Source: Escherichia coli (lineage in GTDB: Bacteria; Pseudomonadota; Gammaproteobacteria; Enterobacterales; Enterobacteriaceae). Taken from it: a stretch of DNA of 64,000 nt. The stretch's first letter is position 1; each line of letters opens with the position of its first letter. Below, in pieces: positions 12,001-24,000 of the stretch. The stretch lies in the NCBI RefSeq assembly GCF_003334385.1, contig NZ_QOWN01000001.1. One strand, 5' to 3'. The position numbers were made by a program.

Positions 12001-15000
12001 TGTCACCGGGTGAAGCGGCACCGTACCAGAAGCAGATCACCCGGGATGTGGTGCTGGACAGTCGTTCACCGGACTGCGAAGAGATATTTCAAGCGCTGAT
12101 CTGGGCGTTCAGTGATTTCGCCCGCGATCGTCGTGGTGTACGCGATCCGGAAGCCCGTTACCTTGCCGGTAATCCCTGGTATCCGGTAGCAGGCCAGCTC
12201 TGAAAACTCCGTTCAGTAGATTCACCCGCATTTGCCCAACCTTCATAAATCTCACAGAGGACATTCTGACCATGTTGACCACAACAAGCCACGACAGCGT
12301 ATTGCTGCGTGCCGACGATCCCCTGATCGACATGAACTACATCACCAGTTTCACTGGCATGACAGATAAATGGTTTTACAAGCTGATCAGTGAAGGTCAT
12401 TTCCCTAAACCCATCAAACTGGGGCGCAGCAGCCGCTGGTACAAAAGTGAGGTGGAGCAGTGGATGCAGCAACGAATCGAGGAATCCCGGGGGGCAGCAG
12501 CATGAAACGTGTTGTAATGCCAGTACGCTGGCAATGTGCAAAATGCCAGCGCTGGTATTGTGGAACCCGGCCCTGCCCCTGGTGCTGGCGACATTTACGT
12601 TCATCTTCTTGCAGACATTCTCCAGTCAGCCTGCAGGTTATAGCTATTCCTGACTGATTCGTCATTCTATTCTTATTGATTATAACTGGCATTACACCGG
12701 TGCCGGAGTGTTTTTCTGTAAGTCTGCGCCGGTTCAGTAAATTAGAAAAGAAACATCTGTCAACGCCAAGATTGTTAGTCGTTACGCCTTATATCACTGG
12801 CGCTGACATTTATCTGTTTCAGTGAAGCATGCCCACAGATTGAGTTATTAAGTTGTGGAAGAACAGCTCTGCCCCGCCTGCTTCTCTCCTTTCAGAAGCC
12901 AGTATGTTGCCATGCCCCGTCTTAATGGTGAGCGCTGAACCATACCTGCTTTTTCCAGTAATAACAGGTAATAGCGGGCCTGGTAATCCGTTACCGCCAG
13001 CGCCTCCGCAATTTCTGCCGTTTTCCCTCCATCATGCCTGTTCAGAAATTCCAGTATTTCATTCTTCATATATTCACTCATCTCACTGTAACAAAGTTTC
13101 TTCGAATAATAAAAATCATGCTTTCTGTTATCAACGGAAAGGTATTTTTATTCTCTGTGTTTGCTGTGTTTGCTTTATTTGTGCAATTTAGTGAATTTGC
13201 TTTTTATTGGCTTTATTTGATATGTATCACATTTTGCGTTTTATTTTTCTGTGAAAAGAAAGTCCGTAAAAATGCATTTAGACGATCTTTTATGCTGTAA
13301 ATTCAATTTACTATGATGTTTTTATCTGAGTGCATTCTTATTATTAGTGTTTTATTCTAGTTTAATTTTGTTTTGTGGGTTAAAAGATCGTTTAAATCAA
13401 CATTTACAACATAAAAAACTAAATTTAACTTATTGCATGAAGAGTATTTCCGGGCCGGAAGCATATATCCAGGGGCCCGACAGAAGGGGGAAACATGGCG
13501 CATCATGAAGTCATCAGCCGGTCAGGAAATGCGTTTTTGCTGAATATACGCGAGAGCGTACTGTTGCCCGGCTCTATGTCTGAAATGCATTTTTTTTTAC
13601 TGATAGGTATTTCTTCTATTCACAGTGACAGGGTCATTCTGGCTATGAAGGACTATCTGGTAGGTGGGCACTCCCGTAAGGAGGTCTGCGAGAAATACCA
13701 GATGAATAATGGGTATTTCAGTACAACACTGGGGAGACTTATACGGCTGAATGCTCTTGCAGCAAGGCTTGCACCTTATTATACAGATGAGTCGTCGGCA
13801 TTTGACTAAATTATGGCATTCCGGAGTTTCTGGAAGATAAAAAAAGAAGCCCTTATCAGAAAGCAGACAGGTTATATCAGTATTTTGTCGATAAATAACC
13901 TGCCCTGAAAATACGAGAATATTATTTGTATTGATCTGGTTATTAAAGGTAATCGGGTCATTTTAAATTGCCAGATATCTCTGGTGTGTTTAGTAATGAA
14001 AAAGAGGTTGTTATTTATGATTAAGTCGGTTATTGCCGGTGCGGTAGCTATGGCAGTGGTGTCTTTTGGTGTAAATGCTGCTCCAACTATTCCACAGGGC
14101 CAGGGAGAAGTAACTTTCAAAGGAACTGTTGTTGACGCTCCATGTGGTATTGAAACGCAGTCTGCAAAACAGGAAATTGATTTTGGCCAGATCTCTAAAT
14201 CCTTCCTGCAGGAGGGCGGGGAAAGCCAGCCAAAAGATCTGAATATTAAGCTTGTAAATTGCGATATCACAAATTTTAAAAAAGTAACTGGTGGTGGGGC
14301 AGCCAAAGCAGGAAGGGTGGCTCTGACTTTTTCCGGCGTATCCAGTGGGAACAATAAAGATATGCTGCAAACAGTTGGCGCAACTAATACAGCTATCGTT
14401 GTTGTCGCTCCGGATGGCGAACGTGTGAAGTTTGATGGGGCGACCACTACCGGTCCTTCAAATCTGGTTGATGGTGATAACACGATTCATTTTACTGCTG
14501 CGGTCAGAAAGGATGATAGTGGCAAGGATGTAGCTGAAGGTGCCTTCTCAGCAGTTGCGAATTTCAACCTGACTTATCAGTAACAGTAATACGATAATCT
14601 GGTCCGGTAAACAGCGGAAATATTCCGCTGTTTATTTCTCAGGGTATTTATCATGAGACTGCGATTCTCTGTTCCACTTTTCTTTTTTTGCTGTGTGTTT
14701 GTTCATGGTGTTTTTGCCGGTCCGTTTCCTCCGCCCGGCATGTCCCTTCCTGAATACTGGGGAGAAGAACACGTATGGTGGGACGGCAGGGCTGCTTTTC
14801 ATGGTGAGGTTGTCAGACCTGCCTGTACTCTGGCGATGGAAGACGCCTGGCAGATTATCGATATGGGGGAAACCCCGGTTCGGGATTTACAGAATGGTTT
14901 CTCCGGACCTGAAAGAAAATTCAGCCTCCGGCTCAGGAACTGTGAATTTAACAGTCAGGGTGGGAACCTTTTCTCTGATTCCCGGATAAGGGTGACTTTC

Positions 15001-21000: not shown

Positions 21001-24000
21001 TGCATGGAATAATATTGTCTTTTACTCCCTTGGAAACGTTAACTCTTATCAGGGAGGGAATGTGGTGATTACTCAAAGGCCACAATTTATAACTTCGTGG
21101 CGCCCGGGCATTGCTACGGTAACCTGGAATCAGTGTAATGGTCCTGGGTTTGCTGATGGTTCCTGGGCTTACTACAGGGAGTATATTGCGTGGGTAGTAT
21201 TCCCCAAAAAGGTTATGACCAAAAATGGATATCCCTTATTTATTGAGGTTCATAATAAAGGTAGCTGGAGTGAGGAGAATACTGGTGACAATGACAGCTA
21301 TTTTTTTCTCAAGGGGTATAAGTGGGATGAGCGGGCCTTTGATGCAGGTAATTTGTGTCAGAAACCAGGAGAAACAACCCGTCTGACTGAGAAATTTGAC
21401 GATATTATTTTTAAAGTCGCCCTACCTGCAGATCTTCCTTTAGGGGATTATTCTGTTACAATTCCATACACTTCCGGCATGCAGCGTCATTTCGCGAGTT
21501 ACTTGGGGGCCCGTTTTAAAATCCCATACAATGTGGCCAAAACTCTCCCAAGAGAGAATGAAATGTTATTCTTATTTAAGAATATCGGCGGATGCCGTCC
21601 TTCTGCACAGTCTCTGGAAATAAAGCATGGTGATCTGTCTATTAATAGCGCTAATAATCATTATGCGGCTCAGACTCTTTCTGTGTCTTGCGATGTGCCT
21701 GCAAATATTCGTTTTATGCTGTTAAGAAATACAACTCCGACATACAGCCATGGTAAGAAATTTTCGGTTGGTCTGGGGCATGGCTGGGACTCCATTGTTT
21801 CGGTTAACGGGGTGGACACAGGAGAGACAACGATGAGATGGTACAAAGCAGGTACACAAAACCTGACCATCGGCAGTCGCCTCTATGGTGAATCTTCAAA
21901 GATACAACCAGGAGTACTATCTGGTTCAGCAACGCTGCTCATGATATTGCCATAAATGGTTTATCCGGAGCCGGATAGAGTGTTGTGGATATCTGGGATG
22001 CCCCGGGAAGTCACCTTTCAGCCACTTCATTTATGGATTATACGCGGCCTGCACTGAGTTACGTCCATGTAGCTCATCTGACGTTCAGCCGCTTTATCTC
22101 GTGCTGTTCTGGTCTCAATACTTCCATGCCGTTGCAATTACCTCTTAAACCATTCCTTACCATTTTCATGTCTTCGATAAGAAATCTTCATCATGCATGA
22201 TCGATTTTGTCGATCGATTCGATCGAATTTTCTCTTTTTACCCTGTCTTTTGCATGGTTTTAAAATAAGCAACCTTCTTTATCGTGCGGGTAAGAACCAA
22301 CGGAGATGATTGAAATGAAAAAGGTTATTGTTGTTTCAGCGCTTGCTATGGCGGGCGTATTTTCAGCCCAGGCTCTGGCTGATAGGGGTAAAACAGGCTT
22401 TTATGTGACCGGTAAAGCTGGTGCTTCGGTTGTGACTCAGACTGACCAGCGCTTCCGTCAGGACTTTGGGGATGATGTTTATAAGTATAAGGGCGGTGAT
22501 AAAAACGATACTGTATTTGGTGCAGGCCTTGCGGTGGGCTATGATTTTTATCAACATTACAATGTTCCTGTGCGCACGGAAGTGGAATTCTATGGCCGCG
22601 GAGCTGCAGACTCCCATTATACACTGGATACATGGCATTCTCCGATGGGGGATGGTGGTCGGGAAGACACACAGAACAGGCTCAGTGTGAATACCCTGAT
22701 GGTGAATACGTATTATGACTTCAGAAACAGCAGTGCATTCACTCCATGGGTGTCTGTTGGACTGGGTTATGCACGGATACATCATAAGGCAACATATACT
22801 GATACCTCCTGGAATAAATCTGGTGAGGTGAGCGATATTTCTGCGTTGCATTACTCGGGATATGATAACAATTTCGCATGGAGCATTGGGGCCGGTGTTC
22901 GCTATGACATAACCCCGGATATCGCTCTTGACCTCAGCTATCGCTATCTGGATGCTGGTAAATCCTCCCTGTCTTACAAGGATGCAGAAGGGGATAAATA
23001 TAAATCAGAGGCTGACGTTAAAAGTCACGACATCATGTTTGGTGTGACTTATAACTTCTGACGACACTGCTCCTGAGCGATAATTACACATATTCAGTAA
23101 TTAAGATATTTATATATCTTCTGCAACTAAACAGAAATACCCTGCAGTAATATACCGCAGGGTTATTTGTTTCACAGGAGATTTATGGTTTTTATTATCT
23201 TATTCCCTTTATAATAATATTACCGATATATTCCGATGAATATCAGAAAACTGTTTTGTCCGGGCAATACACCCCGGATTTTATTGTTTTTATTCTTTTT
23301 TGTTGTTTCTGTCATAACCACAATTGCATGCGGATACACTGAGAAGAATGCCACCGGGAATGTGTTGCTGCTGTTCCTTCTTCTGCTCCTTGCACACAGA
23401 AATACCCTCACATCCATTACAGCGCTGTTATTTCTGTTCTGTTGTGCACTGTATGCGCCTGCCGGTATGACGTACGGTAAAATCAACAACAGTTTTATTG
23501 TCGCGTTGTTGCAGACCACAACTGATGAGGCAGCGGAGTTTACCGGGATGATTCCTGTTTATCATTTTCTGGTCAGTGCCGCGATTCAGGTATTCATGGT
23601 GATTTTCTGGCGAACACACCGCCGTGGTCACCGTAACTGGCTGGCACTGCTGCTGTTCGTATTATGCTCAATAAACAGCTGGCCGTTGCGGATGGTTAAA
23701 GGAACTGTTGTGGGGACAACTGACACATTGCGTGAAATGCAGCGTTATAAACAACTGAATCAGCACGGGGCTGACAACTGGAAAATCCTGCCGGGTGTAC
23801 CGTTGTATGACACGATTGTTATCGTCACTGGTGAGAGTGTGCGCAGGGATTATATGTCGGTATATGGCTATCCCGTGCCAACCACGCCGTGGCTGAATAC
23901 GGCACCCGGTTTATTTATTGACGATTATACCTCGACAGCCTCCAGTACAGTGTCTTCCCTGAGCCGGACACTGATTTATGACTATGAGCAGAACCCTGAT

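Follow-up and report, generated by a model that had tools for sequence, protein, structure and literature searches.

Does the DNA on either side of a divergent papI-papB pair in Escherichia coli hold a complete P-fimbrial (pap) operon, and does the spacer between the two genes carry the methylation switch that would turn such an operon on and off? P fimbriae are a classic virulence factor of pyelonephritis, and the pap switch is a textbook example of phase variation under epigenetic control through DNA methylation. The question was raised by an earlier note on a stretch of 64,000 nucleotides from contig NZ_QOWN01000001.1 (RefSeq assembly GCF_003334385.1), here called the window. We read the region 12848..21955 of the window, with a probability of about 0.92, as a complete class II pap chaperone-usher operon with the classical phase switch, which would be expected to be phase variable. 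An intact pap operon with a two-site methylation switch is already known, textbook biology; mechanistically nothing is new in it, and what it tells here is that the source, with class II pap intact at selC, belongs to an extraintestinal pathogenic lineage of E. coli.

Gene content and orthology

Open reading frames (ORFs) were mapped over 11500..23500, using the start codons that RefSeq assigns to the homologous genes of strains CFT073 and KE51. The map placed papI on the minus strand, followed by ten plus-strand ORFs, papBAHCDJKEFG, up to 21955. All eleven genes are without internal stops, and neither nonsense mutations nor frameshifts were found. The product lengths (Table 1) equal the length annotated in CFT073 or KE51 in ten of eleven cases; the exception is PapA, with 188 aa against 187 and 189 aa, a length that is normal for this hypervariable pilin. 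The earlier note's eleven genes of expected size and without frameshifts were thus borne out by the map and the reference lengths.

At the DNA level, the segment 12700..22100 was used as a megablast query against 5426 complete E. coli genomes. The whole 9.4 kb matched at 96.9-98.6% identity, with CFT073 (the pheU-linked island copy, NC_004431.1 4940687-4950092) at 96.9%, KE51 at 98.6%, and further genomes among the matches. The matched operons are all annotated in RefSeq as pap (papI, papH, papC, papF, papG-II), and the gene order is colinear with the annotated operons of CFT073 and KE51.

The eleven proteins were compared with characterised Pap proteins in PDB and Pfam and with those of the two reference strains, and proved identical or nearly identical to them, with 74-100% identity to their CFT073/KE51 counterparts. 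PapB and PapD are identical to both references, PapC to that of KE51 and PapH to that of CFT073, and PapE is 98.8% identical to the KE51 protein and 74% to the CFT073 allele. Solved Pap structures were matched by nine products (PapI, A, H, C, D, K, E, F and G); PapB matched its paralogue FocB, and PapJ the Pfam family of that name. Hidden Markov models from NCBIfam were uninformative for orthology: searched with the pap products, they returned no Pap-specific family; below the cutoff, other fimbrial families were matched (Lpf, Fim, Stf, Ste, Std), and PapI, PapB, PapJ and PapG had no match.

Class II is indicated by PapG, which matched the structure 7lhg_G, named 'PapG-II', over residues 1-336 with 782 bits, and whose lectin domain matched structures 4z3e and 1j8r (E 1e-133 to 1e-135). 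It is identical to CFT073 PapG-II at 333 of 336 residues (99.1%), and its RefSeq homologues are named papG-II. The locus could be taken for another pap-related type (prs/PapG-III, sfa/foc or a further pi-fimbrial cluster) in view of the spacer, which was matched at 90-95% identity in 1246 records, against 707 for the structural region. This assignment is refuted, and its chance of being right practically nil, by the full-length PapG-II match, the papG-II names of the homologues and the Pap protein identities to CFT073 and KE51. A PapG-III operon, that of HB37, and further PapG types were distinguishable, and in other genera the nearest homologues of PapC have only 53-72% identity and lack a GATC pair at 102 bp near the usher gene (~2 kb upstream).

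The major pilin, PapA, is 93.7% identical to that of KE51 (pheU-linked) and 83.5% to that of CFT073, and is clearly a different antigenic allele from the J96-derived PapA in PDB (5flu). The papA allele is rare, with a DNA match of at least 99% in 1 of the 5426 genomes (strain UID2309220036, which is the nearest match for both papA and the papI-papB spacer) and a next best match of 96.8%.

The papI-papB spacer and its GATC boxes

The spacer spans 413 bp (13082..13494). It contains GATC at 13284 and 13386 only, 102 bp apart, and no other occurs between 12385 and 13933; the scan thereby returned exactly the pair and the spacing that had been claimed. Both sites stand in ACGATCTTTT contexts on opposite strands, agACGATCTTTTAtg on the plus strand and aaACGATCTTTTAac on the minus strand, with the core ACGATC at each, which Hernday and co-workers reportedly described in 2003 as the PapI-specific element. 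The two sites lie in the arms of a 27-nt inverted repeat (13266-13292 / 13381-13407; complementarity 81%), and the proximal GATC lies 109 nt upstream of the papB ATG. Both distances, 102 bp and 109 nt, are constant in 8/8 pap spacers (the window and seven others), the lengths of which range from 404 to 521 bp.

Aligned with CFT073 and KE51, the spacer differs only by three single-nucleotide polymorphisms (SNPs; around 13184, 13322 and 13399) and by the copy number of a 9-bp repeat, and the part from 13193 to 13494 has 2 differences from CFT073. This alignment, the ACGATCTTTT contexts and the inverted repeat agree with the pap-switch contexts that the earlier note had seen.

Two GATCs at this distance might also arise by chance in an AT-rich spacer, and GATC is not enriched over the window (228 observed, 235 expected). 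The argument against chance rests on the exact spacing and on homology instead of on this count. On these grounds chance is refuted and has next to no likelihood left: the spacing recurs exactly in all eight independently retrieved spacers, whose lengths differ; the flanks of the two sites match each other as the inverted repeat; and the arrangement is the published signature of pap-type Dam/Lrp switches, namely two GATC boxes 102 bp apart together with a PapI-like protein (PMC2909390).

The remaining elements were placed against the reviewed layout of the switch. In the reviews the GATCs lie within Lrp sites 2 and 5, and sites 1-3 overlap the papBA promoter (PMC11316696, PMC9820224); going from the papI start, binding site 1 of PapB comes first, then the CRP site and then the Lrp sites (PMC11316696). 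The order in the window agrees with this layout, with a match to a papI promoter followed by the 9-bp repeats (13155-13176) and then a CRP-like site (13216-13231). Six putative Lrp sites (1-3 proximal, 4-6 distal) are supported by homology alone, and the putative papBA promoter was placed where it is because Lrp site 3 is put over its -35 and -10 elements (PMC11316696). A PapI-like and a PapB-like regulator are both encoded locally and divergently transcribed.

Expected operation of the switch

Binding of Lrp, PapI, PapB and CRP, the methylation states, switching and piliation would be expected to follow the pap model. In the OFF state, Lrp would occupy the promoter-proximal sites around the GATC at 13386, so that the papBA promoter would be blocked and this GATC left unmethylated, while Dam would methylate the one at 13284. 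In the ON state, PapI, the co-regulator that moves Lrp between the two sets of sites, would shift Lrp to the distal sites around 13284; the proximal GATC would become methylated, and CRP and PapB would activate papBA and papI. A hairpin 3' of papA would end most transcripts, leaving the major pilin in excess over the downstream products. As to these products, PapD escorts the pilins through the periplasm, and PapC builds the fimbria from them in the order PapG-PapF-PapE-PapK-PapA(n)-PapH; the ligands of PapG-II are Gal-alpha(1-4)Gal glycolipids on kidney epithelium.

Several observations weigh against a working class II operon. The spacer carries the three SNPs relative to CFT073 and KE51, the one around 13399 falling near both the proximal GATC (10 nt) and the putative papBA -35 (4 nt); its exact allele occurs in 1 of the 5426 complete genomes; and its 9-bp repeat has only two copies. 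PapG differs from CFT073 PapG-II by E68G, Q93K and K172T (precursor numbering). The papBA promoter was missed by the consensus promoter scan, which reported the promoter on the papI side. No papX follows papG in the ORF map of the region 3' of papG, unlike in some pap operons, e.g. that of HB37. Finally, dam and lrp are absent from the 64-kb window, so that the competence of the host had to be assumed; E. coli normally encodes both Dam and Lrp.

These spacer features and PapG substitutions, with N17D and F62L in PapI relative to both CFT073 and PDB 2htj, would speak for an operon that is intact in frame yet silent, locked or non-adhesive, whether through rare spacer SNPs, through an effect of the low repeat number on the activation of papI, or through the amino-acid substitutions in PapG or PapI. 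Silent or non-adhesive pap operons have been reported for some asymptomatic-bacteriuria strains. For the present operon we regard this as improbable: the papI allele is common (405 records with at least 99% DNA identity, many at 100%), the GATC boxes, the CRP-like site and their spacing are unaltered, two repeat copies are within the natural range of 1 to 14, and nonsense and frameshift mutations are absent. Nothing in the sequence contradicts the reading as an intact class II pap operon.

Copy number of the 9-bp repeat

The repeat, whose 9-bp unit recurs in the region of PapB site 1, was identified with Tandem Repeats Finder (TRF) and can be written in the register TGTTTGCTG or CTGTGTTTG. Copies of TGTTTGCTG number 1 in HB37, 20KM2222 and 09A19CPO009, 2 in the window, 3 in CFT073, 4 in KE51, 8 in CT30 and 14 in N68. 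The spacer lengths found in wider match lists (404, 413, 422, 431, 440, 467 and 521 bp) fit this pattern. With the copy number, the papI promoter changes its distance from the CRP/Lrp block and its helical phase relative to it; the papBA side is unaffected.

PapB is said to bind with a 9-bp periodicity (reportedly Xia and co-workers, 1998). If it does, the number of protomers of PapB that are loaded at site 1 would depend on the number of copies. That a repeat of 1-14 copies tunes papI activation, and hence the switching frequency between strains, is a tentative proposal, which we make jointly with one on GATC avoidance (below) and which, taken together with it, is more likely wrong than right by a wide measure. 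No paper describing the repeat polymorphism was found in a limited literature search, which is not proof of novelty.

The papA-papH hairpin

The 69-nt spacer between papA and papH folds with a minimum free energy of -23 kcal/mol (z = -4.55), and none of 200 shuffled sequences folded as well. The stem-loop that the earlier note had placed at 14609..14640 was recovered by this folding as a hairpin at 14606..14636 plus a U-rich tail. PMC6524683 (citing Baga et al. 1985) describes a partial terminator in the papA-papH interval, by which downstream transcript levels are reduced, and by its matching position the hairpin is predicted to be this published element. The consensus terminator scan missed it, as the criterion for the U-run was unmet, and proposed weak hairpins elsewhere; a search of Rfam over 11500-29000 returned tRNA-Sec only, with no curated family over the papA hairpin or the spacer.

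The hairpin sequence is kept in five of six pap operons, and in the alignment three pairs are preserved through changes on both sides, which suggests that a structure is maintained at this position. The sixth operon, from the dog isolate E. coli 20KM2222 (2370..2431 of the retrieved stretch), has unrelated sequence at the position of the hairpin. By eye, this replacement can also form a stem-loop, ACAGGGTG...CACCCTGT, in which case it would be the structure and not the sequence that is conserved.

A GATC-free stretch of 7.2 kb

From the 3' part of papA through the first half of papG (14240..21430), GATC does not occur at all, against 27.6 sites expected from mononucleotide composition, 24.9 from a first-order and 19.8 from a second-order Markov model. 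Among the 256 tetramers, GATC is the most under-represented in this stretch (z = -4.4), with CCGG and TATC the most over-represented. The same gap, with a length of 6.5-7.3 kb, was found in five further pap operons of E. coli, among them operons of PapG-III and of other PapG classes; two GATCs occur in a single divergent allele of papF. The cores of the E. coli pap operons are 95-99% identical, and the copies are for this reason not independent observations.

For comparison, operons with PapC homologues of 53-72% identity were taken from 11 other Enterobacterales species (of the genera Buttiauxella, Pluralibacter, Citrobacter, Lelliottia, Yersinia, Edwardsiella, Erwinia and Enterobacter). They carry 11-20 GATCs per equivalent 7.4 kb, an observed/expected ratio of ~0.6, with 2-7 in each usher gene. 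Over the ~2 kb on the 5' side of the usher, all 11 operons lack a GATC pair at 102 bp; the only pairs of this kind belong to two Edwardsiella loci, where they stand in GATC-dense sequence 3.4-4.5 kb upstream. The Dam/Lrp switch thus seems to have been joined to pap-like structural genes in the E. coli pap lineage only, as judged from the GATC pairs, homologues of PapI and PapB not having been searched for.

An explanation by protein sequence or codon usage was considered and rejected. When synonymous codons of papH..papF were shuffled, 13.5 GATCs were expected and the minimum in 2000 shuffles was 5. Because of this expectation and of the counts in the 11 species, the GATC-free stretch is taken to be specific to E. 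coli pap and not forced by the proteins.

The most economical reading is a compositional legacy of the donor, with GATCs re-imported where alleles of papA, papF and papG recombine. The second half of our joint proposal, that the absence of GATC is kept by selection, either because it keeps Dam, SeqA or MutH off the transcribed operon, which would leave the two GATCs of the switch as the sole Dam substrates near the promoter, or because it escapes GATC-directed restriction in the course of horizontal spread, is correspondingly doubtful. A limited literature search, which is not proof of novelty, found no paper on the GATC-free stretch of pap.

Comparison with known systems

CFT073 and KE51 share with the window the order of the pap genes, PapG-II, the GATC boxes and the papA-papH hairpin, and differ from it in the papA allele, the repeat copies and the three spacer SNPs, as given above. 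A further difference is that no IS3 stands after papG in the window. In CFT073, 12.8 kb of upstream flank (pgt genes and others) are 99.9% identical, but the downstream context is different, the island of the window abutting selC.

The prototype Pap switch (J96 / pap-17 of C1212; Low and Uhlin laboratories) was compared by description. It has divergent papI and papB and, 102 bp apart, GATC boxes that fall in Lrp sites 5 and 2; CRP and PapB (site 1) bind on the papI side, and papA is followed by a terminator. The window shares the divergent genes and the spacing of the boxes, and has putative counterparts of the Lrp, CRP and PapB sites and of the terminator. J96 carries PapG-I and F13 PapA. The prototype spacer is given as 416 bp in the reviews (PMC9820224), against 413 bp in the window. 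The sfa, foc, daa, clp and pef switches have the same signature of two GATCs at 102 bp with PapI/PapB-like regulators (PMC2909390), and the match of PapB to FocB (E 3e-51) reflects a paralogue of this kind; the structural genes of these systems differ, and the window locus is pap proper.

The same chromosomal arrangement is that of UPEC132 / N50 (NZ_CP040456.1), which has the selC order pgt-...-pap-tia-phosphoethanolamine transferase-TPR protein-integrase-tRNA-Sec-yicJ. Its upstream flank is 100% identical, its operon 97.6%, and its spacer is 422 bp long against 413 bp. The phosphoethanolamine transferase gene of the window differs from it by a premature TAG and a diverged 3' half.

Island context and neighbouring genes

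The pap operon is part of a genomic island that has inserted at selC, the gene of the selenocysteine tRNA, with the core genes yicJ, yicI ... recG, spoT beyond tRNA-Sec. The features of the operon and of its surroundings are listed in Table 1.

Table 1. Coordinates of the pap operon, its regulatory elements and the neighbouring island genes in the window.
Feature	Position	Strand	Description
papI	12848..13081	-	77 aa; phmmer to PDB 2htj (P fimbrial regulatory protein), E 1.5e-43
sigma-70-like papI promoter	13106..13134	-	TTGATA, 17 nt, TATTAT; 10/12 consensus matches; pattern match only
9-bp tandem repeat	13155..13176		TGTTTGCTG / CTGTGTTTG register; 2 copies; TRF; PapB-site-1 region
CRP-like site	13216..13231		TTTGA-N6-TCACA, read from sequence; putative
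distal GATC box	13266..13292		GATC 13284-13287, context ACGATCTTTT; predicted equivalent of Lrp site 5; identical in CFT073 and KE51
proximal GATC box	13381..13407		GATC 13386-13389, ACGATCTTTT on - strand; predicted equivalent of Lrp site 2
putative papBA promoter	13403..13431	+	TTTACA, 17 nt, TAACTT; weak match, read by eye
papB	13495..13809	+	104 aa regulator; 100% identity to CFT073 and KE51; FocB 3m8j, E 3e-51
papA	14017..14583	+	188 aa major pilin; PDB PapA 5flu, E 1e-51
GATC-free stretch	14240..21430		3' part of papA through first half of papG; 7.2 kb
papA-papH intercistronic hairpin	14606..14636	+	14 pairs, loop AUA, U-rich 3' side
papH	14653..15240	+	195 aa pilus terminator/anchor; 100% identity to CFT073; PDB 2j2z, E 5e-119
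papC	15299..17809	+	836 aa usher; 100% identity to KE51; PDB 7lhg_C, 1841 bits
papD	17895..18614	+	239 aa periplasmic chaperone; 100% identity to CFT073; PDB 7lhg_D, E 2e-157
papJ	18651..19232	+	193 aa; Pfam PapJ PF14855 full length, E 5e-84; 97% identity to CFT073
papK	19242..19778	+	178 aa adaptor; PDB 7lhg_K, E 4e-115
papE	19805..20326	+	173 aa tip fibrillum subunit; PDB 1n0l_B, E 5e-54
papF	20401..20901	+	166 aa adaptor; PDB 7lhi_F, E 6e-97
papG class II	20945..21955	+	336 aa, predicted Gal-alpha(1-4)Gal adhesin; 7lhg_G 'PapG-II', E 7e-235
tia/hek-like outer-membrane protein gene	22306..23061		promoter-like site 22237-22266
phosphoethanolamine transferase gene	23236..24738		truncated
TPR protein gene	25089..26132	-	island right end
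integrase	26544..27728	-	abuts tRNA-Sec
tRNA-Sec	28028..28122	-	Rfam

Upstream of the promoter-like site of the tia/hek-like gene, three GATCs stand within 26 bp (22199, 22212 and 22221) in the palindromic sequence TCGATCGATTCGATCGA (22199..22226), and this triplet may be another Dam-sensitive promoter. No paper describing it was found in the literature searched. The same triplet is present in KE51 (13837-13859 of the retrieved stretch). Together with the 7 kb free of GATC and the 9-bp repeat, it might bear on the insulation and tuning of the Dam-dependent switch.

In the phosphoethanolamine transferase gene, a TGG-to-TAG change at 24283-24285 shortens the product to 349 of ~500 aa. From ~23900 onward, the identity of this gene to that of UPEC132 falls from ~100% to ~93%, which suggests a recombination breakpoint near 23900.

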